From Bacteroidota bacterium (lineage in GTDB: Bacteria > Bacteroidota > Bacteroidia > JABEUT01), in NCBI GenBank assembly GCA_021823405.1, contig JAKAOA010000001.1:43628-107627 (forward strand): DNA of 64,000 nucleotides. Direction: 5' to 3'. Below, one piece after another: positions 11,994 through 46,605 of this stretch; position 1 is the first letter of the stretch, and every line of letters begins with the position of its first letter. The notes below the pieces were generated by a model. That model searched no databases, was not told the origin of the DNA, and saw nothing but the letters and a program-made list of their open reading frames with translations. Position numbers and translations under genes: made by a program.

Positions 11994-11999
11994 CTGTTG

Positions 12000-12019
12000 A
12001 ACCCGATAGCTATCGGGTT
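12000..12019. repeat. REP-like palindromic element, subtype 1 (AACCCGATAGCTATCGGGTT)
   Basis: Perfect 20 bp palindrome with the flank ttg...gccaaaattca. Member of the 7-copy family. Confidence 0.8.
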
Positions 12020-12073
12020 GCCAAAATTCACAAACCCTGTTAAGCATAGTTTAGTGAATAGTGGGAGTTGGGC

Positions 12074-12093
12074 GTCCCGATAGCTATCGGGAC
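12074..12093. repeat. REP-like palindromic element, subtype 2 (GTCCCGATAGCTATCGGGAC)
   Basis: Perfect 20 bp palindrome followed by gtgaaaagcgcaaa. Confidence 0.8.
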
Positions 12094-12390
12094 GTGAAAA
12101 GCGCAAACTCATTTGGCAGACATATCTTGCTATATGTGTTTTTGTCATTTAGTATAGAATTTACAACTTTAACTCACCGAAAGAATTCTGTCGTTTTTTG
12201 TCGGAAAATGCGTATTTTTTCATATTGCCGGTAGGGTATATTTTCAGATATTTTAATGCAACATATTGATTTACAGTTATTTTATAAATTTTTGAAAATT
12301 TGACGTTCACAAAATCATTTACAGGCACTATATTTTCTTTTCTCAAAATCATTTTCCACTATTTATTTTCTGAATTATAATTGTGTCTTT

Positions 12391-12472
12391 CATAGTTTAT
12401 ATCTCATAGTTCATCGCTTATAACTTATAGCTTCAGAGCGCAAATATATACATTATTTATTACATATTACAT
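12391..12472. repeat. AT-rich block 'X' of the right inverted-repeat arm
   Basis: Reverse complement matches 2306-2396 (see the left-arm X feature). Confidence 0.7.
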
Positions 12473-12737
12473 ATATTGATAATATATTTATTAACAATCG
12501 ACTTCACTCTGCCCTCTCGTTTTGCAAAGAGAGGTGGGAGGTAAAAGGGATTAGCTTTGTCCTATTGAAGATGTTGTCCTTTTATATTTTGGTAAGTTTT
12601 ATAGCTAAAAAGCCGCTGACTGGGATTAATCAGTGCAAATGAATAAAGTCAGATAAAAATTGACATAAGGAATTATACGGATCGTAAGTTATTTAATCTC
12701 AAAGTTTTCATAGTCCATTCGAGTTTAAACAATTAGC

Positions 12738-12766
12738 AGAAAAAAAGGCGGGTAAAAACCCGCCCT
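12738..12766 (-). terminator. Rho-independent terminator downstream of hsp20
   Basis: On the minus strand the stem GGCGGGT / ACCCGCC with a 4-nt loop is followed by a T7 tract. Confidence 0.7.
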
Positions 12767-12776
12767 TTAAAAACTG

Positions 12777-13238
12777 TTATCCAATTTCTATAACACGGGA
12801 AGTGTTAATCTTGGTTTCAGTTGATTTTGGCACGGTGATATGCAATATACCATCCTTGTAAGCTGCCGATATTTTGTCCTTTACCACCGTATCTTTAGGA
12901 ATCTGGAAGGAGCGTTGAAATGATTCAAAGCTGAACTCCCTGCGGGTGTAGTTACCTTCCTTGTCACTTTCTTCCTTGCCGTCTTCCTTGTGCCCTGAAA
13001 TTGTCAGCATGTCATTGTCAAGCTCAACTTTAAAGTTGTTCCTTTCAAGACCGGGGGCGGCTACTTCCACCTCATAACTCTTTTCTGTTTCGCGGATGTT
13101 CACTGATGGTACGCTTGCATTACCTGCCAGTCGGTTGAAAGACCAGTCAAAAATGTCCCTGTTGAATAATTCATCTAATACAGATGGAAATTCCGGGAGC
13201 AAGCTCCTGCTGTGATTTGATTTTACAAGTGTTTTCAT
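12777..13238 (-). CDS. Hsp20/alpha-crystallin family small heat-shock protein
   Basis: Alpha-crystallin domain (VNIRETEKSYEVEVAAPGLERNNFKVELDNDMLTISG ... AAYKDGILHITVPK). Confidence 0.9.
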   Translation of the reverse strand: MKTLVKSNHSRSLLPEFPSVLDELFNRDIFDWSFNRLAGNASVPSVNIRETEKSYEVEVAAPGLERNNFKVELDNDMLTISGHKEDGKEESDKEGNYTRREFSFESFQRSFQIPKDTVVKDKISAAYKDGILHITVPKSTETKINTSRVIEIG

Positions 13239-13442
13239 AATTAGTCCTCCTTAATTTTATGTCTGCCACTTTCTATTTTTAATGACAGACGGGTTAAACA
13301 TTAAATTGAATTAATCATAAATAAGATTGCAATCTTGATTTGATTACTATCAAAACCTTTGCCAGAAAATTTATGACAAAAGTTAAAAAGTGTTAATCAA
13401 AATTCGGCAGAAAATATGTCTTGTGCAAAACGACCATAATTG

Positions 13443-13462
13443 AACCAGATAGCTATCAGGAC
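13443..13462. repeat. REP-like palindromic element, subtype 2, slightly degenerate (AACCAGATAGCTATCAGGAC)
   Basis: Carries the core ...GATAGCTATC... and the downstream motif gcaatcgcaaaat shared with 12094 and 26240. Sits in the hsp20/pirin divergent promoter region. Confidence 0.65.
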
Positions 13463-13637
13463 GCAATCGCAAAATTACTTGCGCACAATGTAATATCTTC
13501 GTTTCATTTTATAGTCAGATCTTTCCATGCCAAATTCTATTTTATATTCTTGCAATTTATCATTTCTTAATCTACATTAAGGAAAAGTTCTATCCGGTAT
13601 ATCTATTTTTGTCGCCGAATTTAGCGGAAACAATAGT

Positions 13638-14519
13638 ATGGAAATTATTGAACAAGGCATGAAAACAAGAACTGTACAGCAAATTACGAAAGCATTGCCC
13701 CAAATTATGGGCGATGATACAATCTACCAGCCATTCCCAAGCCACGCCCTGCAGCACGTTGACCCGTTCATATTACTGCACCACTGGGGTCCATACACCT
13801 TTCAGCCCGAAAATGACGCCTTTTCGGTAGGCGCGCATCCGCATCGCGGTTTTGAACCTGTTACCTTTATCTTTCAGGGTGAAGTTCACCACCGCGACTC
13901 TATGGGAAACGACAGCATTATAAAAGAGGGAGGCATACAATGGATGACCGCAGGCAGAGGCGTAATGCATTCCGAAACCGGTACCGACGAATTTCATAAG
14001 AAGGGCGGTAATTTTGAAATTATACAGGTTTGGATGAACCTGCCTAAGAAATTGAAAATGGCTGAACCATTTTATCAGGGTTACCAGTCAGACCAAATCC
14101 CAACTCTTTTTCAGGACGGGAAGAAGGTGGAATTAAAAATCGCCTCCGGTAAATACCGGAATATTGCAGGTCCCGTTAAATCGCCTACGGATATAAACTC
14201 CTTCATGATATATATGCAAGAAAACGGAAGAGCTGAAATTGAACTGGAAGAACAAAAAAATGTAATGCTCTACTTGCTCGATGGTTCGGTTAACGTGAAT
14301 AATACAAGTATAAAATCGGCAAGGAACGCTATAACATTCCGGAATGATGGAACGCTAATTAATATTGAGGCAACGGGCAAAAGTAAACTGCTGTTGCTTG
14401 CCGGTAACCCGATAAACGAACCGGTGGCGCAATATGGTCCCTTCGTTATGAATACGCGTGAGGAACTAAATCTTGCTTTTGAGGACTTTTACAATGGCAA
14501 AATGGGAACTTTAAAATGA
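13638..14519 (+). CDS. Pirin family protein (bicupin)
   Basis: HPHRGFEPVTFIFQGEVHHRDSMGN metal-binding cupin motif. 293 aa. Confidence 0.9.
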   Translation: MEIIEQGMKTRTVQQITKALPQIMGDDTIYQPFPSHALQHVDPFILLHHWGPYTFQPENDAFSVGAHPHRGFEPVTFIFQGEVHHRDSMGNDSIIKEGGIQWMTAGRGVMHSETGTDEFHKKGGNFEIIQVWMNLPKKLKMAEPFYQGYQSDQIPTLFQDGKKVELKIASGKYRNIAGPVKSPTDINSFMIYMQENGRAEIELEEQKNVMLYLLDGSVNVNNTSIKSARNAITFRNDGTLINIEATGKSKLLLLAGNPINEPVAQYGPFVMNTREELNLAFEDFYNGKMGTLK

Positions 14520-14549
14520 TTATTAAACGCTTAAAAAAATCAACCATAT

Positions 14550-14999
14550 ATGTTACAGAAAATAATTAAATCATCTCCCGGTTACGACAGGACTGTTCTC
14601 CGGCTTACATTAGGAATTGTGTTACTTGCGCATGGATCGCAAAAAATGCTTGGCCTGTTTGGCGGCTACGGTTTCGTTGGAACTTTAAACGCTTTTAGTC
14701 AATATATGCATATTGCGGCGCCCGTTACTGTAATGGTGATCTTCATAGAATTTTTCGGTTCGCTCATGCTTATCAGCGGACTGTTCACCCGCATAGCAGC
14801 GCTGGGTGTATTGGGATTATTCACCGGAATACTTTTTATTACCGCTCCCCATTCTGGATTTTTTATGAATTGGGAAGGCATAGCCAAACCGGAGGGTTTT
14901 GAATATGAGATTCTCGTACTCGGAATGGCGCTAACCCTGCTGATTGGCGGCGGCGGTTCTTTTGCAATGGAAAATAAATTCGCCATCAATAATAATTAA
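14550..14999 (+). CDS. DoxX family membrane protein
   Basis: About 150 aa with 4 TM helices and a DoxX-like hydrophobic pattern. Located between pirin and YceI, a recurrent arrangement. Confidence 0.65.
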   Translation: MLQKIIKSSPGYDRTVLRLTLGIVLLAHGSQKMLGLFGGYGFVGTLNAFSQYMHIAAPVTVMVIFIEFFGSLMLISGLFTRIAALGVLGLFTGILFITAPHSGFFMNWEGIAKPEGFEYEILVLGMALTLLIGGGGSFAMENKFAINNN

Positions 15000-15022
15000 C
15001 AACAACTAAAACAAAACAAGTT

Positions 15023-15550
15023 ATGACTAAATGGAAGATTGACACAGCACACAGCCAAATCCAATTTAAGGTGAAACACCTTGTGGTAACAACAGTATCA
15101 GGAACGTTCGGAAAATTTGACGCCGGGATGGACTGGTCAGGCGGCGACCTTACTGATGCCAAAATAAATTTTACTGCCGAGGTTGACAGCATTAATACCG
15201 GCAATGCTCAACGAGACGGGCATCTTAAAGCGGAGGACTTTTTTAACGCTTCAAAATATCCCGAAATAAAATTTGTCTCTAAGTCGGTAAAAAAGATTGA
15301 CAACGAAAATTATAAGGTTGAAGGAGACCTGTCGCTCCGCGATGTTACAAAACCGGTTACCTTGAATGTGGTGTACGGCGGAACTGTTAAGAACCCCTAT
15401 AACATGATAGTAGCGGGATTTGACATTACCGGGAAAATTAACCGCAGCGATTTCGGACTGAAGTGGACGGCTTCCACTGAAGCCGGTCAGCTGGTGGTAA
15501 GCGACGATGTGCGCCTTGACATAACAGTTGAAATGATTCAGCAGAATTAA
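15023..15550 (+). CDS. YceI family periplasmic polyisoprenoid-binding protein
   Basis: WKIDTAHSQIQFKVKHLVVTTVSGTF YceI signature. 175 aa. Confidence 0.85.
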   Translation: MTKWKIDTAHSQIQFKVKHLVVTTVSGTFGKFDAGMDWSGGDLTDAKINFTAEVDSINTGNAQRDGHLKAEDFFNASKYPEIKFVSKSVKKIDNENYKVEGDLSLRDVTKPVTLNVVYGGTVKNPYNMIVAGFDITGKINRSDFGLKWTASTEAGQLVVSDDVRLDITVEMIQQN

Positions 15551-15803
15551 TAATCGCTTAGTCGCATTATCGATCAAAGAGAAATTTGAATTGCAAATTA
15601 TTCCATAGTTCAATTTCTCCATACTGCTGTGAATCCTTTATTGACAAAGCATTTCGGGTTGTGATGAAAATAAGTTCCGTCATACTATTCAAACTTCGAA
15701 TTGCGCTTATCAACATTTGAGTGTTAGTAATATGCTGACAATTATATGCTTTTTAATTTTTTTCTTGCCTATGTTCGTAACATAAATTTAAAATTTAACC
15801 AAC

Positions 15804-15887
15804 ATGGCAACAAAAAAAGCAAAAAAGAAAGCTGCCCCGAAAAAAAAAGCAGCCAAAGCGAAGAAGAAAACTTCGAAAAGGAAATAA
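15804..15887 (+). CDS. Putative 27-aa lysine-rich basic peptide (MATKKAKKKAAPKKKAAKAKKKTSKRK)
   Basis: ATG..TAA ORF not listed in the ORF track because it is under 60 aa. It is followed immediately by a strong terminator. Contains an A9 homopolymer. Confidence 0.3.
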   Translation: MATKKAKKKAAPKKKAAKAKKKTSKRK

Positions 15888-15890
15888 AGA

Positions 15891-15920
15891 AAAACCCCGC
15901 ATTATTGCGGGGTTTTTTTT
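15891..15920. terminator. Bidirectional rho-independent terminator (CCCCGCA-ttat-TGCGGGG + T8, A-tract on the other side)
   Basis: Perfect 7 bp GC stem flanked by an A-run and a T-run. Lies between the small ORF (+) and the recG stop (-). Confidence 0.8.
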
Positions 15921-15952
15921 ATCCGGTATTTTAAAAGTGATGTAATTACCTG

Positions 15953-18058
15953 TTATGATATTCTGCTCCAGTTTCCCTTTTCCCTATCCATCCGGAATAG
16001 TTGCTGCGCTATAATTTTATTTTTATCCATCGTCAGTCCTGGATCCTCATTTAAAATTTCACCTGCGATAATTCTTGCCTGACTGACTAAAACTCCGTCT
16101 CGTGCAATATCCGATATTTTCAGATCAAGAATACCGCTTTGTTGGGTTCCGGTTATGTCACCCGGACCTCGCAATCGTAAATCCTGTTCCGAAATTTCAA
16201 ATCCGTCTCCGGTACGAACTATTGTATCTATTCTCGTTCTTGCGTCGGCGCCAAGTTTAAAGGGAGTCATAAGTATGCAATAGCTCTGGTATGCACTTCT
16301 TCCCACTCTGCCGCGTAGCTGATGCAATTGCGATAAGCCGAAACGTTGAGCGCTTTCTATCAGTATTACTCCTGCATTGGGAACATTTACTCCGACTTCA
16401 ATGATGGTTGTGGCAACAAGGATATGAATTTCATTTTTTGCAAAAAGCTGCATTATTTTTTCTCTCTCCGCTAATTTTATCTTCCCATGTATCATCGCCG
16501 TTCGGTGCATCGGAAATGCTTTGCATACTTCTTCGTAGCCGTTTACCAGATTCTCAAGGTCGTTCTTTTCCGATTCGTCAATAAGCGGATAAATAATATA
16601 TGCCTGTCTGCCTTGTTGTAACTCCTTTCTGATAAATGCATATACTTCGCTTCGTCTGTTATCATAGCGATGTACTGTTTTAACGGGCTTCCTGCCGGGC
16701 GGCATCTCATCAATTACCGATACGTTTAAGTCGCCGTAGAAGGTCATGGCAAGTGTTCTCGGAATGGGCGTGGCGGTCATAATGAGAACATGAGGGACGG
16801 CTTCGCTCTTTTGCCACAGACGCGCACGTTGTTCCACTCCAAAACGGTGCTGTTCATCTATGACTACCAGTCCGAGTTTATTAAATTTCACAGCGTCCTC
16901 TACTAATGCATGGGTGCCGATAATGATTTGCAATACACCGGCGCCAAGTTTCTCCAGTATTTTTTTCCTTCCGCTTTTTTTAGTCGAACCGGTTATGATA
17001 TCTACTTCAACAGACAAATTACCTAAGAATTCTTTTAACGTGGCGTAGTGTTGCATAGCAAGTATTTCGGTTGGCGCCATAAGGCAGCACTGGTAACCGT
17101 TATCAATAGCAAGAAGCATACTAAGCAGAGCAACAAGCGTTTTCCCGCTGCCTACATCGCCTTGTAATAGCCGGTTCATCTGTTTACCGGTGCCCATGTC
17201 GCGGTGAATCTCCTTCACCACCCTCTTTTGTGCTGTTGTAAGTGGGAACGGCAGGTTGTTATTATAGAATTCGTTGAAGTGGTCACCGACTCTTGGAAAG
17301 ATATAGCCCTTTACCGCCTGTTCCCGAAGAACCTTATGCCTAAGAAGATTGATCTGTAAGTAGAACAGTTCTTCAAATTTCAACCGTCTCTGCGCCTGCA
17401 TTAACATCTCGTTATTCGCCGGCAGATGTATATGCCTGATTGCTTCGCGGCGAGGTAAGAGGTGTAGTTTCTCTATTAGCCAGGCAGGCAGGGTTTCATC
17501 AAGGTGTTTTAATGCCTGCGGTACAAGGGTTCGCTGTAATCGAAGAATGCCTGATGAGTCGAGACCTTTAAGTTTAAGGAGTTCTGTAGCGCTATATACA
17601 GGTTGAAGCCCCTTTAAAAGTTCTTTATTCTCCTCGGTTCCTGCTTCGATAGACGGATGACTAATATTGTATTTACCGTTGAAAATAGCGGGTTTGCCGA
17701 AAACTATATAATCCGTTACGGGACTTAAGGTTTTATTTATCCACTTAATTCCCTGAAACCATACAAGTTCAATGGTACCTGTATCGTCGGTTAGCTCTGC
17801 AACTAACCGCTGCCTACGTTTTTCTCCCAATATTTCGGTTCTCGTTATCTTACCGCATAATTGTATGTAAGGCATCTCCTCCTTTACCTCCTTTATTTTA
17901 TAAAACCTTGTTCTGTCAACATAACGGAAGGGATAAAAATGCAATAAATCGGAAAATGTGTTAATGCTCAATTCCTTTTTTAACGCCTCCGCCCGCTGCG
18001 GACCAACTCCTTTAAGATATTCTATAGGGGTTTCAAGAAAGGAGGTTCCGGCGTTCAT
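15953..18058 (-). CDS. recG: ATP-dependent DNA helicase RecG
   Basis: Wedge domain (LKGVGPQRAE), DEAH helicase motifs (GDVGSGKT, DEQHRFG). Start placed at Met16 of the ORF-track protein to avoid the 32-nt overlap with hemB. The longer start (18103) is possible. Confidence 0.85.
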   Translation of the reverse strand: MNAGTSFLETPIEYLKGVGPQRAEALKKELSINTFSDLLHFYPFRYVDRTRFYKIKEVKEEMPYIQLCGKITRTEILGEKRRQRLVAELTDDTGTIELVWFQGIKWINKTLSPVTDYIVFGKPAIFNGKYNISHPSIEAGTEENKELLKGLQPVYSATELLKLKGLDSSGILRLQRTLVPQALKHLDETLPAWLIEKLHLLPRREAIRHIHLPANNEMLMQAQRRLKFEELFYLQINLLRHKVLREQAVKGYIFPRVGDHFNEFYNNNLPFPLTTAQKRVVKEIHRDMGTGKQMNRLLQGDVGSGKTLVALLSMLLAIDNGYQCCLMAPTEILAMQHYATLKEFLGNLSVEVDIITGSTKKSGRKKILEKLGAGVLQIIIGTHALVEDAVKFNKLGLVVIDEQHRFGVEQRARLWQKSEAVPHVLIMTATPIPRTLAMTFYGDLNVSVIDEMPPGRKPVKTVHRYDNRRSEVYAFIRKELQQGRQAYIIYPLIDESEKNDLENLVNGYEEVCKAFPMHRTAMIHGKIKLAEREKIMQLFAKNEIHILVATTIIEVGVNVPNAGVILIESAQRFGLSQLHQLRGRVGRSAYQSYCILMTPFKLGADARTRIDTIVRTGDGFEISEQDLRLRGPGDITGTQQSGILDLKISDIARDGVLVSQARIIAGEILNEDPGLTMDKNKIIAQQLFRMDREKGNWSRIS

Positions 18059-18071
18059 AAGGTTAACCGGA

Positions 18072-19037
18072 CTACCAGCCGTTTTCCGCAATATCCCTTG
18101 CATGATAGGTGATGATCAGACCGGCGCCGGCTCTTACAAAGGCATGCATGTTTTCCATTACCACGCTCTTTTCATCTATCCATTTACGCCCCGCTGCCGC
18201 TTTAACCATCGAATATTCGCCGGAGACATTATAGCAAGCAATGGGTAACCGGGTGTTATGCCGGAGCCGGTTTACAACATCGAGGTATGCAAGCGCCGGC
18301 TTTACCATCAATACGTCTGCGCCTTCGGCTTCATCCAGAGCTGCTTCCTTCATTGCTTCGTTGGGGTTGCGATAATCCATCTGATATGATTTCCTGTCGC
18401 CAAATTGCGGACTGGAATCGGCGGCTTCGCGAAATGGTCCGTAATATGCTGATGCGAACTTAATGGAGTATGCCATTATCGGGGTATCGGTCAGGTCGGC
18501 ATCATCGAGCGCTTTGCGTATAACCCCCACCCTGCCGTCCATCATGTCGGAAGGCGCCACCATATCGGCTCCCGCTTCGGCGTGAACGAGAGCCATACGG
18601 GCTAATGAAGTAACGGATAAATCATTGTGTACACGTCCATTTTTTACAATGCCGCAATGACCGTGCGAGGTATATGCACAAAGGCATACATCGGTAATGA
18701 CATAGAGTTCGTCTTTGAAATTCTTTTTAAGCAACCGGGTTGCCTGCGCTACCACTGTATCCTTATGGTAGGCAGATTTTCCTTCAGGGCTTTTTTCCTC
18801 GCCCGACCCGAAGAGGAGAATTTTATTAATCCCCTTTTTTAAACCCTTTTCAACATCTTTCATAAGAGTATCGGGGGAGAAATGGTTTATTCCGGGCATG
18901 GAAGATATAGGCGAAATGAGGTTTTTCCCTTTTTCAACAAAATACGGATATATAAGCATATCCTTGTGAAATCGGACTTCGGCTACCATATCGCGTAGGG
19001 CGGCGCTTATTCGGAGACGGCGCGGGCGGATTAACAT
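18072..19037 (-). CDS. hemB: Porphobilinogen synthase (delta-aminolevulinate dehydratase)
   Basis: MLIRPRRLR..., the active-site region around SDMMDGRV, and ...YNVSGEYSM. 321 aa. Confidence 0.9.
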   Translation of the reverse strand: MLIRPRRLRISAALRDMVAEVRFHKDMLIYPYFVEKGKNLISPISSMPGINHFSPDTLMKDVEKGLKKGINKILLFGSGEEKSPEGKSAYHKDTVVAQATRLLKKNFKDELYVITDVCLCAYTSHGHCGIVKNGRVHNDLSVTSLARMALVHAEAGADMVAPSDMMDGRVGVIRKALDDADLTDTPIMAYSIKFASAYYGPFREAADSSPQFGDRKSYQMDYRNPNEAMKEAALDEAEGADVLMVKPALAYLDVVNRLRHNTRLPIACYNVSGEYSMVKAAAGRKWIDEKSVVMENMHAFVRAGAGLIITYHARDIAENGW

Positions 19038-19138
19038 TACATCTAATAATTAAATATCTGACATTCAGAACTGAAAATTGCAAGCAAAGATACTACTGAA
19101 AAGATACCACGAATCTCATACAAATTTAATAAAAAATC

Positions 19139-20710: not shown

Positions 20711-20878
20711 GTTGCAAAAGTACAGAATGTTTCAGATGGTTAGTTTATTATTCCCCTGTTCATAATTACCATCACTTTTAATTAAAAACCGCGTGCGGAA
20801 AGAAATTGATGTAATCACTTATTCATTACATCCTTAAAATAATTACCTTTGACAGGTAACAATTAATACCCAATAATT

Positions 20879-21385: not shown

Positions 21386-21510
21386 GATAATCTATGTTGG
21401 GTTATTACTTCCGCCGGTATTAATGAGGCGGACTTATTTTTTTCGGAAAAATGCGAATAAGAATGGCAGTTGGGTTCTCCCTATATTTGCATGCTAATAA
21501 TATCTAATCC

Positions 21511-25981: not shown

Positions 25982-26028
25982 ATCTGTAAACCGGACTGCG
26001 ATTAGTCGCGTTATACAGACCATAATTG

Positions 26029-26048
26029 AACCCGATAGCTATTGGGTT
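26029..26048. repeat. REP-like palindromic element, subtype 1 (AACCCGATAGCTATTGGGTT, 1 mismatch)
   Basis: Carries the same caattg and gttaaaattca flanks as the copies at 12000, 35002 and 46471 (opposite orientation to the latter two). Confidence 0.75.
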
Positions 26049-26221
26049 GTTAAAATTCATTTATTCAAAGTATCAGTATCACTACTCGTACAGATGTACT
26101 GCCCGTAAGTGATTTAGCGACCACAAAATACCTGTACGGGCAGTCATATCAAGATGAATGTTTTACATTTTCATCCATTGTCGGTATATTTTACTTTGCG
26201 CCACCGCTATAGCTAAGGTGT

Positions 26222-26239
26222 CTTGATAACTATCGGGAC
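26222..26239. repeat. REP-like palindromic element, subtype 2, degenerate left half (cttgataactatcgggac)
   Basis: Followed by gcggtcgcaaaat, the subtype-2 flank. Preceded at 26176-26190 by ttgtcggtatatttt, the conserved tail motif of the longer element. Confidence 0.55.
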
Positions 26240-26539
26240 GCGGTCGCAAAATCAATTAGAGCAGTAGAAATTATTACCTCTTAAAATAATCTAATTCAGA
26301 CGACTCTTTTATAGCCATAAGAAGGTTAAATCTTACGAATATGTAATCCAATACTTGTAAATTTTCAAAAATAAATAATCATTCTATTATTTTTATAATA
26401 CATTGCTTATCAGTTGTTTTAATGATTCTTTGATTATTTAAATGTTACATATAAGGCGGAAAAATTTACTTTTCTGTTTGTGAATCAAAAATAATTATAC
26501 CTTTGCAGCCATATTTTAATCCATCAAATAAAACACACA

Positions 26540-34946: not shown

Positions 34947-35037
34947 AGCAAAATACCTATATGAGCAGTTATACCGATGCTATGAATTTGAGAATTTTAA
35001 CAACCCGATGCTATCGGGTTCAATTGCAGTCGGTATA
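34947..35037. repeat. Long (~91 bp) form of the REP/MITE-like element (palindrome core 35002-35020) between phoB and phoR
   Basis: Aligns base-for-base with 46417-46507 (gcaaaatac...tgaatttg...caacccgat(a)gctatcgggttcaattg..gtcggtata). Confidence 0.75.
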
Positions 35038-36241: not shown

Positions 36242-36961
36242 TTATTTATTGTAGAACATTCTCTCCTTGAATTTTGCCCTGTAAACCATTCCAAGGGTAA
36301 TCTGTTTCGGTTTCCCATCCTCGGCTGTTATCCCTTTAAGGGTGAGCAGGTCATACTCTACTTCATGCACCGCTTCAAGAGATACCGCTTGCGATTTGTT
36401 AACTTGAATCAGGGATGGGGAATTGGCAGTGAGCAAATCCATCTTACAATTCATAAGCGTATATTTCTCGCCGTTTTTCAACCACACCTGTTTGTTGCGC
36501 GGGTCAATTTCATCGGTCGATACAAATATAATATCAACCAGCCGGATATTAACTTTCCTTCGCGACTCCGCTACATTGAATAACTCATATTCCTTTTTTT
36601 CGACCAGCAGTTCATGCGCCTTTTGAAATGCTTTGTAAAGCCGATCCTTCATTATAGGTTTGGTTACTATATCAATGGGTGAAATATCGATGGCATCTCT
36701 GAATTTGTGATCTGTGCCGGAGATGAAAATGACCGGCTTATCGTTCAGTACCTGCGCGAGTGTAGTTCCATCTATACCCGGCATCTGAATATCCAACAGA
36801 CATAAATCAAAAATGAGCTCCGGAGCTTGTTTCAAAAATTCGGTTGGGTCGGTAAAAGTATCCTTCACTTCAACTATCGGCGACTCTTTACATAGCTGGA
36901 GCAATGAAGAAAGAAAGTATTCATCATCATCTACCGCTACTGTCCGTAATTTTTTTATCAT
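36242..36961 (-). CDS. LytTR-family response regulator (receiver + LytTR DNA-binding domain)
   Basis: Receiver with DDDE acidic pocket and LLDIQMPGIDG. C-terminal LytTR-like domain. No cognate kinase in the operon. Confidence 0.7.
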   Translation of the reverse strand: MIKKLRTVAVDDDEYFLSSLLQLCKESPIVEVKDTFTDPTEFLKQAPELIFDLCLLDIQMPGIDGTTLAQVLNDKPVIFISGTDHKFRDAIDISPIDIVTKPIMKDRLYKAFQKAHELLVEKKEYELFNVAESRRKVNIRLVDIIFVSTDEIDPRNKQVWLKNGEKYTLMNCKMDLLTANSPSLIQVNKSQAVSLEAVHEVEYDLLTLKGITAEDGKPKQITLGMVYRAKFKERMFYNK

Positions 36962-37745: not shown

Positions 37746-38012
37746 GTTTTATAGGGATAAAAATTAGATTTCAGGTCGTAATTCGGGTTCAAATTTATGG
37801 TTTTTTACTGATTCGAAGGGCAAAATAAAAAGTCATTCTACCTGGAATGTGCCATAGCTCTGCATTATCAATCTAATCATCTCAAGCTATGCTATAAATA
37901 GCTGATAGCAAGCATTTAACAAAATTAATAAAAGATTTTTGCCATTCTGATTTGGAAATTCATTAAACATTTATAATTTTGTAAGGTCAAAATCATAAAT
38001 AAACCTAATATT

Positions 38013-38912: not shown

Positions 38913-38955
38913 TACCCAAGTTCGGGTAATGGACAGTCATGAAAATAATAATAGA

Positions 38956-38990
38956 AGGGTTGCTTTTAGGCAACCCTTTTTTATTTTTTT
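38956..38990 (+). terminator. Rho-independent terminator (AGGGTTGC-ttttag-GCAACCCT + T-tract)
   Basis: Perfect 8 bp stem followed by a T-rich run. Confidence 0.8.
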
Positions 38991-39060
38991 CCGATTTTTG
39001 CATTACGGAGGAGTACCGATACTGTAAATGCGGGTTGCAGTTAATTTTCAGGATAAAAAT

Positions 39061-39492
39061 ATGTGGAAGGAATATTTTTCGTTCAATAAGAGGCAGCGAA
39101 ACGGAATCATCGTGCTGGTTTCATTAATAATATTAATGATAGGCGTAATAATTATTCTCGATAACAGACCGCCTGTAAAAGGTAATTTTGACTTTACCGG
39201 CTTTAAAGCGCAGTTGGCGGAAACAGAGAACATACCGTCATCCCGCGATTCAGAAGATATACCCGTGAAGATGGAAAGACCGAAGGACCCGTTTGCCGTT
39301 AAATTAGATCTCAACAATTGTACGGTAAAGGAACTTGCCCGCGTTCCCGGAATAGGGTATTACCGCGCCCTTGCGGTGGTGAACTACCGCGAAATGCATG
39401 GTCCGTATAGAAAAACGGACGACCTGCTGAAATGCAAAGCTGTTGACGATTCCTCTTTCCGAATCTTAAAGCCCTTTGTCATTCCCGAATGA
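39061..39492 (+). CDS. comEA: ComEA-family helix-hairpin-helix DNA-binding protein
   Basis: N-terminal TM anchor and a C-terminal tandem HhH (LNNCTVKELARVPGIGYYRALAVVNYREMHGPY). Start placed at MWKEYF, and the longer alternative is 39028. Confidence 0.7.
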   Translation: MWKEYFSFNKRQRNGIIVLVSLIILMIGVIIILDNRPPVKGNFDFTGFKAQLAETENIPSSRDSEDIPVKMERPKDPFAVKLDLNNCTVKELARVPGIGYYRALAVVNYREMHGPYRKTDDLLKCKAVDDSSFRILKPFVIPE

Positions 39493-39534
39493 ATTATCAG
39501 TTGTTGAATCCATCATTCAGCTAATTATCGCCAT

Positions 39535-40845
39535 TCATTCCAAACCCAGATATACATTAAGTACCTTTTTCTTCATCAGGAAATCGTATTTAGCGCTTGC
39601 CATATCAATTTCCGCCTGTACTTTTTTGTTCTTGGCATCGTTATAGGTCAGCGAATTATTCATTCCAAGCCGGAACTTTTCCGACTCGTATTTGAAATTC
39701 TCTTCAGCATAGCGCAGCTGTTCTTTAGCTGCCGCATACTTCCTTTCGCCTGCAATGATATCGTGATAGGCGCTTTCTATTTTTTTAATGAGGTCCTTCT
39801 CGGCGATACTTTCATCGAGCCGGGTGTTCCGGTAATTTATTTCGGCATTAATTATCGAATATTGATTTGTATAATTATTAAAAATTGGAAGTGACAGGTT
39901 GAACCCAAGCGTAACTGTACGATTATCGAATATTTGCGTTTCGATGCTCTGCGGATTCAGATTGGATGTGGTAGTACCCAGAGAGGGCGAAAAAGACAGA
40001 GTGGGAATTGTACCCGCCCTTTGAATAGAGGCATTAAGTTCTGCTATTCGCGTATTGTTCGAAGCTATTTTTAATTCCGGGGAGTTATTTCTTGCCAATT
40101 CAATGGTCTGGTCAAGAGTTAGGGTGTAGGTAATCTGCGCGCTGTCGTCGGCGACAGGCGCAATTCTGAAATTGGTATCCGCCTCAACCTCTAAGGTCTG
40201 CCGGAGCGCCAGGTAATCGTTATCAAGCGTATTTTGAGCGTTTACCAGATTGAATTTATCGCTGGAAAGCTGCGATTGCATATTATACAAGTCCCCGGCG
40301 GCAATACTTTTTGCGGCATAGAGATTTTTACTGCGGTCAACCTGCAGCTGCGATTGACGAACGGTTTGTTCCGCCTTGTCAACGGTTTCCCGGTCGAGTA
40401 ATATCTGAAAATATTGCTGCATGGTTTGCACCTTAATATCGTTGACCGATTTTTTGTAATTATTATCGCTTAATTCTATTCCTTCCCGTTTTTCTTTAAG
40501 TGTATTTGGTTTTCGCATTCCTTCATAAAGGTTAATAGATGAATTAATGTTTTCGCTCGTGCCTACGTTGGCTGTATTTACAAGTTCGTTGAGAGATGGT
40601 ATAACGTATATACCCCACGTTTCACCCGAAAAAACAGATGCGTTCAATGAGGGTATGTATTTCATTTTGGCTTGTTTGTAATCCGCCTGACTTACAATTT
40701 TATTATTTGCCGCTTTTGCCAAAGTCAGGTTACGCCTTAACGCAGTATCAATACATTGTTCGAGCGTCCAGCTGTTCTGTGCTTTCAAGATGCCGGAGAA
40801 TAAAGTGAGGCAAATGATAAGGAGCGTAAAAGGGTGAATTTTCAT
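39535..40845 (-). CDS. TolC-family outer-membrane efflux protein
   Basis: Signal peptide and two tandem OEP repeats, about 436 aa. Terminal gene of the efflux operon. Confidence 0.8.
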   Translation of the reverse strand: MKIHPFTLLIICLTLFSGILKAQNSWTLEQCIDTALRRNLTLAKAANNKIVSQADYKQAKMKYIPSLNASVFSGETWGIYVIPSLNELVNTANVGTSENINSSINLYEGMRKPNTLKEKREGIELSDNNYKKSVNDIKVQTMQQYFQILLDRETVDKAEQTVRQSQLQVDRSKNLYAAKSIAAGDLYNMQSQLSSDKFNLVNAQNTLDNDYLALRQTLEVEADTNFRIAPVADDSAQITYTLTLDQTIELARNNSPELKIASNNTRIAELNASIQRAGTIPTLSFSPSLGTTTSNLNPQSIETQIFDNRTVTLGFNLSLPIFNNYTNQYSIINAEINYRNTRLDESIAEKDLIKKIESAYHDIIAGERKYAAAKEQLRYAEENFKYESEKFRLGMNNSLTYNDAKNKKVQAEIDMASAKYDFLMKKKVLNVYLGLE

Positions 40846-40888
40846 AATAGAACCATTGTAGGGGAGGTTAATAGGAAGTTATACCTGT

Positions 40889-41986
40889 TCATAAAGAATT
40901 TCCGTCAATTTCGGGGGACTTTATTTCGTCGTCTTTTGTTAAGCCCGACAGAACCTCAATATTAATTCCATCGGAAATGCCGAGTGTGATATACTGTTTG
41001 CGGAAAGCGCCATTTTTCCCTTTCACCTGAACAAAGGATGAGTCGCCCGAAAAACTAACATCGCCTTCTTTAATGGCTAATACATTCATCTTCTTCTCAA
41101 GAAGGATGGATGCATCGGCGCTGTAACCGGCTCTTATTATTTTGCCTTCCTTAGGTATTACAGCCGCTGAAAAGTCGAATTTTACAGAACCTTGCGTATC
41201 GGAGCCCTGCGGCGCTATCATCTCTATTACCGCATCGAAGGTATCTTTCTGTATGGCGCCTATGGTAAGTTCTATTTTCATACCTTCTTTCAAATAGGAA
41301 ACATCAGTTTCGGATATTTTACCGTTGAAAATCATCTGATTCATATCGGCAAGGGTAAATAAAGTTGTTCCCTCGCTGAAGGTGCTTCTTCCCATTACCG
41401 AACTGCCCACTTTTATAGGTATGGTTAATACAGTGCCATCGCAGGTTGCAAAAATAATGTTAGAAGACATGGTTCCGGAGTCCTTCGCCGCCCCTACCTT
41501 TATTACCTGAAGCCGGTTCTGCGCCGATTTCAAATCTTCCGCCTTCAACTCATAATCCTTCTTTGCATTGATAAGGTCGGTCTCTGCAATGGCTCCAACG
41601 CTAAATAGCTTCTTTTGTCTTTCCAGGTCTTGCAAAGACGCTTCTTCATTTATCCTCGCTGAAACCACCGCAGATTCGGCATTGTTCAGATTTTCCAGAT
41701 CCGGAATAAGTTTCAGCTTAGCCAATGGCTGTCCCTTTTTTACCTTATCTCCCACATTCACCTCTATTGCAGATACAATGCCTGAAATAGCCGGTTTTAT
41801 ATCAATTTCTTCTCTCGGAGAAATGGTGCCTGCAACGGTAACCTTACGTTCTATTGTTGTAATGAATGGCTTGTTTGGCTTCAAGGCATTTTTAACCGAA
41901 GCACTGCTGCTTAATTTGCCCTTGAAGAGAAAAGGAATGGCGACTATAACTCCCAGTACGGCAATGATAATTATAACCTTTTTCAT
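40889..41986 (-). CDS. Efflux transporter periplasmic adaptor (HlyD/MacA family)
   Basis: N-terminal TM, coiled-coil hairpin, lipoyl and beta-barrel domains. Sits between the MacB-like permease and TolC. Confidence 0.8.
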   Translation of the reverse strand: MKKVIIIIAVLGVIVAIPFLFKGKLSSSASVKNALKPNKPFITTIERKVTVAGTISPREEIDIKPAISGIVSAIEVNVGDKVKKGQPLAKLKLIPDLENLNNAESAVVSARINEEASLQDLERQKKLFSVGAIAETDLINAKKDYELKAEDLKSAQNRLQVIKVGAAKDSGTMSSNIIFATCDGTVLTIPIKVGSSVMGRSTFSEGTTLFTLADMNQMIFNGKISETDVSYLKEGMKIELTIGAIQKDTFDAVIEMIAPQGSDTQGSVKFDFSAAVIPKEGKIIRAGYSADASILLEKKMNVLAIKEGDVSFSGDSSFVQVKGKNGAFRKQYITLGISDGINIEVLSGLTKDDEIKSPEIDGNSL

Positions 41987-42008
41987 TTTTTATGATTTTT
42001 TGAATTTG

Positions 42009-43247
42009 TTATTCGTATCGTAATGCCTCAATTGGGCTGATTTTCGATGCATTTCTGGCTGGTATGAATCCCGCAAGTGCGCCTGCAACGACCAATATTA
42101 TTATGGCGGAAATGGCCACATTCATATCTACTTCGGGGTGCTGAAAATAGGTGACCGATTTTGTTAATTTACCTATAAGCGATAGCGCACCGGAAGCAAT
42201 TACAAGACCAACAAAACCCGATACAGTGGTTATCACTATTGCTTCCTGAATTACAAGTGAGATAATGGACGAGGGAACTGCTCCAAGCGCTTTTCTTATT
42301 CCTATTTCCTTCGTTCGTTCTTTTACGGTTACAAGCATAATGTTGCCCACGCCTACAACCCCGCCAACCAATGTACTGCAACCGATTATCCATAAAAAAA
42401 TTCCAACGCCCGAAAAAAGCTGTCCTACCACTTTTTCATTACGGGCTCTGTTATAAACATATAATGCATCGTCATCCTTCGGGTCAAAGGAGTATTTACG
42501 CGCAAGCCACTTCTTTATCTTATGTCCGGCTGATTCTGCATCGGCGCCATCTTCCATAACCGCGGTAAAGTGTTCTATCTTCCCGTCCGGTTCAAATTCC
42601 GCCTTATAAACCGAGAAAGGGAGATATATAGTTGATTCGCTTCCGAAGTTGAATATTCTGGTAGTGTCCTCCGCCACAAGCCCGACTACCTTATAGTAAT
42701 TGCCCTTAATCGTAATATACTCTCCGATAGGATCCTTCCCGTGAAATAACTGGTCCTCTATTTTTTTACTTATCACCGCTACTTTTCTCTCCTGCTCCAT
42801 GTCAAGCGGGTCGAGCCAGCGTCCTTCGCCAATATGGAGATATTCTATCTGAGAAAATTCGGGGAAAACAGCCCTTACATCATATACGCCGCTGTTGTTG
42901 CCATAAGATATAGTGCCGGCGTTGGTCACATTGGCTTCGGGCGAAATATATTTTATTACTGGTATATCGGCTTTAAGGTCTGCCATATCATCGCCGGTTA
43001 CTTGTATCGAACGCCCCACGTTTAATCCTTTGTAAGGGATGGTAGTTTTACCGCCCCAGAATTCTACGGCATTGCTTGCAGAGCCGGCAAGTTGATTATT
43101 TACGCCATTTTTAAAGCCCTTACCAACGCAAAGTAACAATACAAGCATAAAAATGCCCCATGATACTCCAAAACCGGTAAGAAAGGTGCGCAACTTATGG
43201 GCTTTTATTGACTGATATATCTCTTTCCAGACCTCTTTCTTAAACAT
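42009..43247 (-). CDS. ABC transporter permease, MacB/FtsX-like
   Basis: N-terminal TM, a large periplasmic domain, and a C-terminal FtsX 3-TM bundle. 412 aa. Confidence 0.8.
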   Translation of the reverse strand: MFKKEVWKEIYQSIKAHKLRTFLTGFGVSWGIFMLVLLLCVGKGFKNGVNNQLAGSASNAVEFWGGKTTIPYKGLNVGRSIQVTGDDMADLKADIPVIKYISPEANVTNAGTISYGNNSGVYDVRAVFPEFSQIEYLHIGEGRWLDPLDMEQERKVAVISKKIEDQLFHGKDPIGEYITIKGNYYKVVGLVAEDTTRIFNFGSESTIYLPFSVYKAEFEPDGKIEHFTAVMEDGADAESAGHKIKKWLARKYSFDPKDDDALYVYNRARNEKVVGQLFSGVGIFLWIIGCSTLVGGVVGVGNIMLVTVKERTKEIGIRKALGAVPSSIISLVIQEAIVITTVSGFVGLVIASGALSLIGKLTKSVTYFQHPEVDMNVAISAIIILVVAGALAGFIPARNASKISPIEALRYE

Positions 43248-43262
43248 TAATAATCCTTTTTT

Positions 43263-43925
43263 TTAGTTTGTAATTATTCCGTCCTTTATGGTTATTATCC
43301 TCTCCGTTTGTTCAGCTATATCCTTTTCGTGGGTGATAATAATGATAGTAACGCCCTGATTATGTATTGTCTTGAACAAATCCATAATATCCTGCGACGA
43401 TTTACTGTCAAGGTTACCGGTCGGTTCGTCTGCCAGTATCATTTTGGGCTGGGTAACCAATGCTCTCGCTATGGCTACCCGTTGTTTCTGTCCGCCTGAT
43501 AGCTCACTGGGCAAATGGTGCGCCCATTCACTTATGCCTACACGTTCCAGATAGTTGCGCGCCTTCTTATTTCTTTCTTTGGTTCGGACTCCCTGGTAGT
43601 ACAATGGCAGTGCAACGTTTTCGAGCGCATTTTTATAAGACAGCAGGTTATATGATTGGAAGACAAACCCTATAAACCTGTTCCTGTAATGAGCGGCTTT
43701 CTTTTCCGAAAGATTCTTAATCAGCGTATCTTCAATGTAGTATTCGCCGGAATCGTATTGGTCTAAAATACCCAGAATATTCAGAAGCGTTGATTTTCCG
43801 GAGCCGGATGCGCCCATAATGGAAACCATCTCGCCCTTCTGAACCTCCAAATTAATGCCTTTAAGAACCTGAAGCCGTTCTTTACCTACCGGGTACGATT
43901 TATATATGTTAGAAAGCCGTATCAA
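43263..43925 (-). CDS. ABC transporter ATP-binding protein (MacB/LolD-type)
   Basis: Walker [10 protein letters not shown], signature LSGGQKQRV, Walker [12 protein letters not shown]. Confidence 0.9.
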
Positions 43926-44479
43926 TGATAATTTACAGTATAAAAGGACTGACAGTTAGCCGGAAAAACGGTGTAAAATTAACCATTTATCAATGCCTTT
44001 TATCTGCCACTATTATATGACGAATTATACGATATTTAACTGTAAAAATAAAATAATGACTAAATCCAACAAACAGAAGCACGGCGTTAACGACGATGCT
44101 GAAAACATAGATAACCATACTTGGATAATCGAACCGGATAGGCGCCCAACATATTTTTTACATAGCTTGAGCATGCCGTTTTGGCTATACCCTTACTAAA
44201 AGTAAAGGGCAGGCAGGCGAACGGCAGGCGGACAACTTATTATAAAATTCCGGCAAAAACGATAACCGAAGTACAACCATTATTACCTGAATGAGAGTTG
44301 TTAATCCATACTGTATGCTAAATTATAACTCGAACTATTGCAATGAATTAGTAGCTTTTGCATCAAAATCATACCATTGTGTCAAATAAAAGGTTAAATT
44401 GCAGAAAATTTGAAAAGCAATGTTGTCATCCCTCCATTAAAAGGATTTCTGAAACGTTGATTTTTCATTAAATAACAAT

Positions 44480-46309
44480 ATGGCTGAAACAAATCTGCAC
44501 AATTTTCATATACCGGTTATGGGTTTGGGTTACACCATGGACACGCCTCTTAAGGTAGCCCGTTTTGGCATATCTTCCGTCATATCATTAGGCGAAGATG
44601 AGTTGATTGAACAAATGCGCAAGTTCCATTCAGGTCAATCCGGCGAACCATATATTCCAATTGACGAAAAACAGGATGATTTCCGCGCAAAACGGGTTAC
44701 TGCCTATCTGAATCTGGTAAACAAACTGGTAAACGCCCAGATAAAAGAATTGTCAGGACAGCCCTTTGCACCCGGCTCCGATATTGTAAAATATTTTGAA
44801 TTGCTGCCAGACGACTCGCCTGCCAAGAAGAGTTACACAATCTTTTTGACCCTCGGCGAGGGTAAAGAAAAAAGTGACGCAGAGAAGAAATTACGAGGAA
44901 TGATCCGCGCCGGCTCCATTGATGTAAATATCATGTCGAAGGTGGATACTCTTCATTACGATAAAAACGGTGAGCCGCTGCCGCCCGAATTTGCTAATGC
45001 CATGTCTGCTCTACGCGGTTATGCGAGCAGCGACCTCCGTTCTACTATCGTTTTTTCAGCAGGTTACAATCCCCGTTTATACAATTATGTAGAGCATTTC
45101 GACGACTTTTTCCCGGATAATGATGGACAGCTTAAGAAAAAAATTGCCATCAAAGTAAGCGACTACAGGTCGGCTATGATTCAGGGAAAAGTGTTTGCAA
45201 AAAAGGGGTTGTTCGTTTCCGAATTCAGAGTAGAATCGGGTCTTAATTGCGGCGGACATGCCTTTGCCACTGAAGGACTCCTGCTAGGTCCGATACTTGA
45301 GGAATTCAAACTAAACAGGGAAGCACTTGAAAATGAGCTTTATACGCAATGCGCTGCTGTGCTGAAGCAAAAAGGTAAAAATCCGTTTTCCGTGCCGCCG
45401 AAGTTTAAACTAACGGTACAAGGCGGAGTAGGAACAAGTAATGAACACAAGTTCCTGTTGCAGCGCTATAATTTTGACTCCGTTGGCTGGGGCAGCCCGT
45501 TTCTGCTTGTTCCCGAAGTGACAAATGTGGATGAACAAACGTTAGGTATGCTGGCTAATGCCACCAAAGACGATTATTATTTAAGCAATGCTTCTCCGTT
45601 GGGAATCCCTTTCAATAACTTCAGAAAAACGTCATCGGAAAATCTTGTCAAAGTGCGTATTCAAAAAGGAAGACCGGGCAGTCCATGCTATAAGAAATAT
45701 CTTGCCACCAATACAGAGTTTACCGAAAATCCGATTTGTACTGCATCAAGAGAATATCAATATAATAAGATAGAACAGCTTAAAGAGAAGAATCTAACCG
45801 GCATAAGGTATGAACAGGAATTTATTAAAATTACCGAAAAGGAATGCCTTTGTGAGGGATTAGGCGCCGGTGCACTTCAAAAGAACAGCATTAAGCACCC
45901 TCACAAACTGAATGCAGTAACTATTTGCCCGGGACCCAACCTTGCTTATTTTTCAGGTATTCACACCTTGAAGGAAATGGTTGACCACATATACGGCAGA
46001 ACCAACCTCCGAAATTCGATTAAACGTTCGAATATGTTCATTAACGAAATTGTTCTTTATATCTCATTCTTGAAAAATAAAATTGCCGCCAATCTATATG
46101 AGCCGCCGGCAAACTTTGAAAAATATATTCAAATCTTTAAACACAATCTGATACAGGGAATTAATTATTACAAAAATCTGGTAAACCGTCTTTCAGAGGG
46201 CTCCGAATCCACTCCAGACGAGGTGTTCAACGAATTGGCGGCTTTGGACTCTTCAATAAATGAAATAAATATAATGGCAGCATCACCTGCGCAAGAGGTA
46301 CTGCCATAA
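44480..46309 (+). CDS. Hypothetical 609-aa protein with NMO/FabK/PfaD-like TIM-barrel flavoenzyme features
   Basis: IPVMGLGYTMD...ISSVISLG resembles the NMO N-terminal PI..G.M......AAVS.AGG.G.L pattern. VESGLNCGGHAF resembles the E(A)GGH catalytic motif. VQGGVGT...GWGSPFLLVPE resembles AAGGI.DG...G.GTRFL.T.E. No search was run. Confidence 0.45.
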   Translation: MAETNLHNFHIPVMGLGYTMDTPLKVARFGISSVISLGEDELIEQMRKFHSGQSGEPYIPIDEKQDDFRAKRVTAYLNLVNKLVNAQIKELSGQPFAPGSDIVKYFELLPDDSPAKKSYTIFLTLGEGKEKSDAEKKLRGMIRAGSIDVNIMSKVDTLHYDKNGEPLPPEFANAMSALRGYASSDLRSTIVFSAGYNPRLYNYVEHFDDFFPDNDGQLKKKIAIKVSDYRSAMIQGKVFAKKGLFVSEFRVESGLNCGGHAFATEGLLLGPILEEFKLNREALENELYTQCAAVLKQKGKNPFSVPPKFKLTVQGGVGTSNEHKFLLQRYNFDSVGWGSPFLLVPEVTNVDEQTLGMLANATKDDYYLSNASPLGIPFNNFRKTSSENLVKVRIQKGRPGSPCYKKYLATNTEFTENPICTASREYQYNKIEQLKEKNLTGIRYEQEFIKITEKECLCEGLGAGALQKNSIKHPHKLNAVTICPGPNLAYFSGIHTLKEMVDHIYGRTNLRNSIKRSNMFINEIVLYISFLKNKIAANLYEPPANFEKYIQIFKHNLIQGINYYKNLVNRLSEGSESTPDEVFNELAALDSSINEINIMAASPAQEVLP

Positions 46310-46416
46310 TAGCAAACTTTTTCTTTAAAACCGTAAAATAACAGTTAGTTAAATGGCTGTACCCGCCGAATTAGCTTTGTACGCCTTTTATACTGCTCGT
46401 AGGTCATTTTGCCAAT

Positions 46417-46507
46417 GCAAAATACTTATACGAGGAGTTCTACATATGCTTTGAATTTGCGTATTTTGGCAACCCGATAGCTATCGGGTTCAATTGTGGT
46501 CGGTATA
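46417..46507. repeat. Long (~91 bp) form of the REP/MITE-like element (palindrome core 46471-46490)
   Basis: Collinear with 34947-35037. The core is the perfect palindrome AACCCGATAGCTATCGGGTT. Confidence 0.8.
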
Positions 46508-46605
46508 TTTTGAACACGATAATTGATACTTTAGAGCAAAATGGAGCATTTCAGAATTATTGACAGTAGCGAGCATACTCAAAAAATCTAAATACCGTAA
46601 TTGGG

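Follow-up and report, generated by a model that had tools for sequence, protein, structure and literature searches.

A hairpin-forming palindrome shared across the Bacteroidota and its copies in the intergenic spacers of one chromosome

Among the described systems closest to the repeat considered here are the repetitive extragenic palindromic (REP) sequences and bacterial interspersed mosaic elements (BIMEs) of Enterobacteria and Pseudomonas, which are associated with REP-associated tyrosine transposases (RAYTs) and belong to the GTAG superfamily. Their hairpin repeats are about 20–40 nt long. In the prevailing view, REPs evolve together with a transposase particular to their lineage and vary from one genus to the next, and the known REPs, as well as the known miniature inverted-repeat transposable elements (MITEs), are species- or genus-specific. 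The subject of this work is a palindrome repeated in a 64,000-nt stretch of a Bacteroidota chromosome (GenBank assembly GCA_021823405.1, contig JAKAOA010000001.1, positions 43,628 to 107,627), referred to below as the window. It shares with REP/BIME sequences the form of a short hairpin repeat devoid of coding capacity, the location in spacers mostly just after genes or within operons, the occurrence singly, in pairs or in a mosaic with other modules, and an occasional intragenic position. It differs from them in that the palindrome is perfect, whereas those of REPs are imperfect, the GT[AG]G foot is missing, no RAYT gene was found beside the copies, the tested Bacteroidota RAYT subfamily is accompanied by another hairpin, and conservation extends across a phylum rather than a genus. 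The seven sites in the window probably belong to an interspersed repeat of the REP/MITE kind that forms hairpins, is non-autonomous, being moved or kept in trans, and is organized in two nested layers. The inner layer would be the 18–20-nt palindrome, with its sequence conserved across Bacteroidota, and the outer one a lineage-specific MITE-like unit with ends TATACCGAC...GTCGGTATA, existing with and without the palindrome. It is proposed that the hairpin acts in single-stranded form, as DNA or as RNA, and that a conserved host factor recognizes it in trans; this factor would copy the palindrome into other repeats, into hairpin tips, occasionally into open reading frames (ORFs), and into phage genomes. 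This mechanism of spread is an inference.

The core of the palindrome, (G)TCCCGATAGCTATCGGGA(T), is conserved phylum-wide in Bacteroidota. When the pattern RWCCCGATAGCTATCGGGWY was scanned against one genome per species (596 Gb), for which about 9 chance matches are expected by our own estimate, the core was recovered in at least 120 loci; among the matches listed, all but 3 record titles name Bacteroidota taxa, and Chitinophagaceae, Flavobacteriaceae, Sphingobacteriaceae, Cytophagales, Bacteroidales and Saprospiraceae are represented. The commonest 20-mer, GTCCCGATAGCTATCGGGAT, with G..T as its outer pair, accounts for 88 of 124 copies. In viral contigs, 46 stretches contain the 18-mer and 51 contain the 16-mer, and T..A is the ninth pair in about 89% of the latter; no full match was found among phage records (2.3 Gb) or plasmid records (7.3 Gb). 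The sequences flanking the 20-mer hold almost no information and are unrelated between genomes. An extension of the hairpin past the 20-mer was considered and is as a rule absent, and TTTGCG/CGCAAA, a candidate for a second conserved module, proved to be lineage-specific and no general companion of the palindrome. The sequence-only reading of the window, made from its letters without database searches, had stated that a lack of further copies elsewhere in the genome would speak against a repeat family; copies are abundant in other Bacteroidota genomes, and an extra 11 kb of flanking sequence of the same genome contained 0. No description of the palindrome sequence was found in the searchable literature (only unrelated primers) or in the supplements of REP/RAYT studies, which is no proof of novelty. 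HIP1 (GCGATCGC) of cyanobacteria is likewise a palindrome over-represented phylum-wide and linked to no gene. However, HIP1 is an 8-mer that occurs thousands of times per genome, coding DNA included, and forms no stable hairpin, whereas the palindrome described here is 18–20 nt long, hairpin-forming, mostly intergenic and very uneven in density.

The inner palindrome folds, as a single strand, into an 8–9-bp stem with an AGCT loop (-10.5 kcal/mol). Among 65 distinct sequences the ninth pair is UA in 38, AU in 14, CG in 7, GC in 1, UG in 1 and unpaired in 4. Changes on both sides of the stem occupy 32 cells versus 7.3 in shuffles, none of the 500 shuffles reaches 32, and controls in which the alignment was slid collapse. 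Since the ninth stem pair covaries, the pairing of the hairpin is maintained. Symmetric double changes predominate among the variants (ACCCG..CGGGT, GCCCG..CGGGC, CCCCG..CGGGG, TTCCG..CGGAA and GAAAGCTTTC), and several single stem changes lead to a G-T wobble on one strand, as in window copies D and E and in variants from loci L025, L028 and L064 (L numbers denote loci from other records). In the four central bases, AGCT, single changes are common. Such a pattern of variation agrees with a hairpin that has a 4-nt loop and is formed by single-stranded DNA or by RNA, and it does not agree with two half-sites read independently.

A covariance model built from the 65 hairpin variants and run on the whole window with filters off returned exactly seven sites, with E-values from 5e-9 to 5e-5, the next match having E = 0.3. 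The exact 16-mer CCCGATAGCTATCGGG occurs at 12002, 12076 and 46473 (0 matches in 100 shuffles), and allowing up to 3 mismatches adds 13445, 26031 and 26222, in total 6 versus a shuffle mean of 0.13; the copy at 35002–35020 has a 1-nt deletion (CCCGAT-GCTATCGGG). All seven, for which a shuffle expectation is about 0.1, lie in spacers. Their positions are precisely those given in the sequence-only reading, and since the scan gives seven sites with the next E-value at 0.3, that list of copies is correct and complete. Two further copies of the long unit, both without the palindrome, had been overlooked in it (26127–26192 on the plus strand and 48187–48291 on the minus strand). The nine copies, lettered A to I, are as follows.

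Copy A, 11984–12034, minus strand: truncated long unit (right end TAGATCTACC.., middle GAATTTTGGCAA) with the subtype-1 palindrome AACCCGATAGCTATCGGGTT at 12000–12019.
Copy B, 12074–12093, no strand assigned: subtype-2 palindrome GTCCCGATAGCTATCGGGAC, a perfect 20-mer extending to CGTC..GACG; flank ..AAAAGCGCAAAC.
Copy C, 13431–13478, minus strand: degenerate palindrome AACCAGATAGCTATCAGGAC at 13443–13462, in the hsp20/pirin divergent spacer.
Copy D, 26012–26102, minus strand: full long unit; palindrome AACCCGATAGCTATTGGGTT at 26029–26048 with one G-T wobble.
Copy I, 26127–26192, plus strand: long unit without the palindrome (..GTTTTACATT|TTCATCCATTGTCGGTATA), head-to-head with D.
Copy E, 26220–26255, no strand assigned: subtype-2 palindrome GTCTTGATAACTATCGGGAC with two G-T wobbles on the plus strand, then GCGGTCGCAAAAT.
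Copy F, 34947–35037, plus strand: full long unit; palindrome at 35002–35020 with a 1-nt deletion; the ends TATACCGATGC and GCAGTCGGTATA pair.
Copy G, 46417–46507, plus strand: full long unit with the perfect palindrome AACCCGATAGCTATCGGGTT at 46471–46490.
Copy H, 48187–48291, minus strand: both end modules and the middle module, no palindrome (..TTTTAGTAAA|TTCAATTGCGGTCGGTATA); 27 extra internal bases.

Copy B has the best covariance-model score (34.3 bits). Most of what had been read from the letters about these sites was confirmed: they form an interspersed repeat family in intergenic spacers, in both orientations, and the two subtypes with a shared core exist as described, with copy C being a chimera of both (left flank of subtype 1, 96% identical to D over 25 nt; right flank of subtype 2, GGACGCAATCGCAAAAT and GCAATCGCAAAAT). 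F and G, noted as collinear, align over 91 nt with 84.6% identity, and the longer MITE-like unit postulated from them exists, the truncations among the copies being A and C. The described gene contexts also hold: F sits between a response regulator and a histidine kinase (the phoB/phoR pair) beside the pstSCAB-phoU operon, C between the divergent hsp20 and pirin genes, and G between a 609-aa gene of no known function and pabB; A and B lie in the right arm of a large inverted repeat, in a stretch missing from the left arm. Copies D, F, G and H begin 3–108 nt after a stop codon: D 31 nt past that of an MFS transporter gene, F 85 nt past that of the phoB-like regulator gene and about 284 nt ahead of the phoR-like kinase start, G 108 nt past that of the 609-aa gene and 99 nt ahead of pabB, and H 3 nt past that of pabC; C is in a divergent region. 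Independent assemblies of this organism from ENA, NCBI and Logan match the window at 99.97–100% identity over the parts that they cover, among them 6 of the 7 palindrome copies (B to G); the sequence at these copies is no assembly artefact.

The long unit (about 70–105 nt) has the ends TATACCGAC/GTCGGTATA and no ORF. In the orientation of F and G its modules follow in the order left GCAAAATACCTATAnGAGCAGTTATAC, middle TGAATTTGnGnATTTTnnCAA, palindrome and right TTCAATTGnGGTCGGTATA. The inverted ends TATACCGA../..TCGGTATA meet in the fold of F, where TATACCGA(T)GC pairs with GCA(G)TCGGTATA, and the same ends are present in G, D, H and I. Five copies are fairly complete (F, G, D, H and I); B and E consist of the palindrome with only a short common flank (..TCGCAAAAT). 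The palindrome is a separable module of this unit. Copies H and I keep both neighboring modules and lack exactly the 16-nt palindrome carried by F, G, D, A and C (H reads ..TTTTAGTAAA|TTCAATTG.., and G reads ..TTTTGGCAA-CCCGATAGCTATCGGG-TTCAATTG..); since precisely these 16 nt are missing, the palindrome is a module that one and the same host repeat may contain or lack. Another Bacteroidota metagenome-assembled genome (L084) has a related unit that includes the palindrome. In one relative with 68% PabB identity, a unit-like sequence with the palindrome (..AATACCATT-CCCGATAGCTATCGCA..) lies 8 nt past the pabC stop (L261, 7540–7579), in the same place as window copy H, which has no palindrome; the contig ends inside it.

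The long unit itself appears to behave as an insertion at two sites. The start of copy A (100% identical to G over 31 nt) is the exact point where the homology of the two large inverted-repeat arms stops, and the spacer before pabB measures 296 nt with the unit here and 74–75 nt without it in two relatives that have the same gene order and PabB proteins 68–70% identical. All long-unit copies end in TA on both sides; this TA is inseparable from the inverted ends, and a shared left extension blurs the boundary. The long unit thus resembles MITEs, being a unit of 70–105 nt with short inverted ends and no ORF, and its absence from the orthologous spacer in relatives may be a further likeness. It differs from them in that no parent insertion sequence with matching ends was found (none was seen in the window or in the loci), and in that the conserved part is the 18–20-nt core, far shorter than described MITEs; we know of no described MITE as short as that. 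The earlier suggestion that mobilization is active or recent found no support: the long-unit copies are only about 85–93% alike and three other assemblies of the organism showed no strain polymorphism.

In other genomes, 85 of 101 scorable copies (about 84%) are intergenic, and the remaining 16 lie inside long ORFs. Of the gene pairs around the intergenic copies, 53 are co-directional, 21 convergent and 11 divergent; the copies lie a median of 72 nt past the upstream stop and 151 nt ahead of the next start. Rho-independent transcription terminators could be expected to show such a placement: a stable GC-containing hairpin soon after stops, with convergent pairs outnumbering divergent ones. We consider this explanation very improbable. 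None of the seven sites was called terminator-like because none has a T-run, whereas canonical terminators are called elsewhere in the genome (12743–12768, 15890–15917 and 38953–38980); 86 oriented copies have no enrichment of T downstream; one window copy is in a divergent promoter region, and A and B are located beyond hsp20’s own terminator. An even less credible explanation is that the sites are operators of one dimeric transcription factor and mark its regulon. A perfect 16–20-bp palindrome in spacers, among them the hsp20/pirin divergent promoter region, would suit such a factor. However, the largest neighbor family, one of ordinary response regulators, is found at only 5 of 171 loci, the changes in half-sites are compensatory and not independent, and some copies follow genes, lie within ORFs or form tandem or nested arrays, so that the operator explanation is already largely refuted. 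Across genomes no gene family recurs beside the palindrome, nor are transposases of any family enriched in its surroundings, and the view that copies occupy functionally meaningful spots or are sites of a regulator is not supported. Rather than terminators or operators, the copies in the window would mostly be passengers in operon spacers, and the most that they would contribute to a transcript, such as one running from phoB into phoR, is a stable RNA hairpin.

Inside long ORFs of L015 (4182), L077 (1979), L104 (3929), L114 (3314) and others the palindrome is read as VPIAIG or PDSYRD, and the ORFs holding it include a hybrid sensor kinase and an Mrp-like ATPase. By analogy with Rickettsia palindromic elements, with which they share the in-frame position of a palindrome inside ORFs, here in other genomes, these copies may be in-frame insertions. 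Nested half- and full palindromes are found in L072, L088, L130, L155, L156 and L161, and L080 has arrays of TCCCGA..TCGGGA mini-hairpins, which suggests that the element tends to land in, or grow from, its own copies. Abutted transposon ends were considered as well and rejected: solo half-sites are only degenerate or nested palindromes, and none flanks an ORF. In L029 two inverted copies flank a pair of genes of helix-turn-helix/DUF2975 type with no transposase. In viral contigs (L127, L129, L136, L137, L150, L153 and L168) a composite repeat, CCCC-[palindrome]-CTCTCCnnnnGGAGAG-GGGG, occurs several times per contig and could form two hairpins with a short stem closing them off. In L128 (4830–4920) and, in reverse, in L148 the palindrome abuts the 3′ half of a tRNA-Met-like sequence (CAT anticodon arm and T arm). 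This half may be a remnant of an attachment site; insertion into a tRNA gene was rejected there, since ARAGORN calls no tRNA at either place.

It is also worth considering three diverged phage diversity-generating retroelements (DGRs), each with two or three variable repeats, a template repeat and a reverse transcriptase, in which the palindrome is identical and stands in the same place (L147, 7582–7800; L166, 10820–11020; L167, 3530–3720). It lies between the template repeat and the reverse transcriptase gene, 28 nt upstream of its start codon, and the adjoining bases differ. The comparison of the three hints that the sequence of the palindrome itself is constrained. A general link to DGRs was rejected, as a DGR reverse transcriptase is present in 6 of 51 viral stretches and the palindrome is beside it in one phage family only.

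The features set out so far raise the question of a true REP system, in which the palindrome would be the cognate hairpin of a domesticated Y1 (HUH) transposase, a RAYT encoded elsewhere in each genome, and would be nicked and moved by it as single-stranded DNA. Its size, hairpin, location in spacers and lean to the 3′ side of genes are REP-like, and the nested self-insertion observed for it is typical of hairpin-targeting elements. Bacteroidota also have their own Y1 subclasses (2.6, 2.4 and 1.2), and these Bacteroidetes-specific transposases are described as having “atypical” flanking structures (PMC6006769). The window, however, contains no Y1 gene by a motif scan, and only one of about 170 palindrome loci (L098) has a RAYT; this gene carries a frameshift, and the hairpin that flanks it is another one, CGGCGAAGTCGGAGACGTTCGCCG. 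The gene was rebuilt, its homologues were collected, and 80 metagenome loci (L171–L250; 484 kb) were fetched, covering one Bacteroidota RAYT subfamily. These 80 loci hold one palindrome in total, and their flanks are enriched for AAGTCTCC/GGAGACTT; because of that single palindrome and the other hairpins in the flanks, the tested subfamily is not the partner. The one palindrome (L214) lies within a repeat unit flanking the RAYT gene, of which a tandem sister has the variant TCCCGAAATTTCGGGA and an upstream copy has neither, so that here again the palindrome is an add-on to another repeat. Nor is there a GT[AG]G foot: the consensus reads GTCCCG...CGGGAT, and the flanks have no conserved motif. 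A true REP system is thus unlikely, and the association with a RAYT-like gene raised from the sequence is not supported by the window, by the palindrome loci or by this one subfamily. The RAYT subfamily itself (NH[IL]H ... Y[IL]HNNP; L098, 3076–3917, minus strand) is flanked by GAAGTC-GGAGAC-GTTC or AAAGTC-TCCCGAC-TTT hairpins, and the hexamers AGTCTC and GGAGAC occur in 27–32 of the 80 loci versus about 5 expected. These hairpins are probably the “atypical” cognate structure of subclass 2.6.

A second kind of REP deserves comparison. The CGTC-tagged palindromic repeats are reported from several phyla, including one Bacteroidetes genome, and no dedicated transposase is given for them; the family is described as having an unpaired CGTC tag, a stem opening with A/T pairs, a 4–5-nt loop and a CCA tail (Di Nocera et al. 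2013, PMC3733652). Measured against this description, the palindrome shares with these repeats an 8–9-bp stem, a 4-nt loop, the lack of an associated transposase gene and some intragenic copies, and window copy B reads CGTC...GACG. It differs in that its GTC pairs with GAC or GAT and that it has neither the A/T start nor the CCA tail, a distinction drawn by description only; it may still be identical to the Bacteroidetes family of these repeats. The C before GTC is present in only 24 of 86 copies. “REP/MITE-like” is a fair description of how the family behaves; by their defining features it is neither a RAYT-type REP nor a CGTC-tagged REP.

Several points weigh against a mobile repeat in two nested layers. 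No mobilizing enzyme was identified, and no transposase is encoded in cis within the window. Neither a clean empty site nor a target-site duplication nor a polymorphism between strains turned up, the assemblies of the same organism being identical, and the comparisons with and without the palindrome could equally mean its deletion and not its insertion. Self-templated correction of quasi-palindromes could yield the symmetric changes of the stem in place of selection. The orientation of the G..T end with respect to genes is only weakly biased (24 vs 14), and because of this neither an RNA nor a DNA role is established. Finally, identity of 18 nt across a phylum is unlike known REPs and MITEs and could instead point to a cellular function.

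Such a function would make the hairpin a site for a phylum-conserved RNA- or DNA-binding protein, kept by selection and captured by local repeats; an RNA stabilizer or processing site and a chromosome-structuring site are proposed as examples. In its favor, the 18-nt sequence is conserved across the phylum with flanks free to vary, it is 100% conserved at one position in the three diverged phage DGRs, it caps longer hairpins followed by T-runs in L042, L144, L149 and L169, and its outer G..T pair is a wobble on one strand only. On the other hand, there is no consistent orientation, gene distance or recurrent neighbor, and no Rfam family matches at the elements (the window was searched in gathering and E-value modes, 18 loci in gathering mode). 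Copies also lie in ORFs (the 16 of 101 mentioned above) and nested in the palindrome itself. Density ranges from about 2 per Mb in the metagenome contigs of Bacteroidota gathered for the RAYT test (484 kb) to about 110 per Mb in the window and 7 copies in 8 kb of an Algoriphagus contig (L025), and this unevenness is more like repeat bursts than fixed functional sites. A host function of this kind is judged rather unlikely. A further proposal, which we put forward tentatively and hold to be possible at most, is that (G)TCCCGATAGCTATCGGGA(T) itself is the mobile or recognition unit of a phylum-conserved enzyme system other than the tested RAYT subfamily, which would insert or regenerate it in repeats, in itself, in ORFs and in phage genomes.

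The genomic background of the copies can be described briefly. The window is part of a Bacteroidota chromosome, as its SprB repeats and a type IX secretion system (T9SS) sorting domain indicate; the nearest homologues, from “Bacteroidia bacterium” and Dyadobacter, with PabB identity of no more than 70%, point the same way, and the organism has no close sequenced relative. No transposase or integrase was found among the 40 larger ORFs (Pfam) or in gene calls on the matching contigs. The large inverted repeat (2261–3069 / 11614–12517) encloses about 8.5 kb, one arm segment being 272 nt at 92% identity, and its arms hold 87-nt tandem repeats (2712–3008, with inverted copies at 11614–11800); the right arm is interrupted by the stretch with elements A and B. 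Between the arms lie hpt, tRNA-Lys, a comM-like Mg-chelatase gene, a PMT_2 glycosyltransferase gene, and thiolase and FAD monooxygenase genes, and the enclosed DNA could be an invertible or duplicated segment. Short-read assemblies (ENA, NCBI) of the same organism stop at about 5491–5513, within the comM-like gene (5337–6872), at about 12109, directly after element B, and at about 36636–36687, which suggests repeats or population heterogeneity at these points.

For the window alone the practical yield is small: its copies are probably insertions of a repeat into operon spacers and no regulatory sites. What is new is the same hairpin sequence across many families of one phylum, in viral contigs and within unrelated lineage-specific repeats. 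If (G)TCCCGATAGCTATCGGGA(T) is itself the mobile or recognition unit, no smaller mobile module would be known from bacteria, and none before it with a sequence identical across a phylum. Should the hairpin be read by a conserved factor, then a defined oligonucleotide would be a direct handle to find that factor, and the palindrome could also be used to mark repeat bursts and breaks in the assembly of Bacteroidota genomes.

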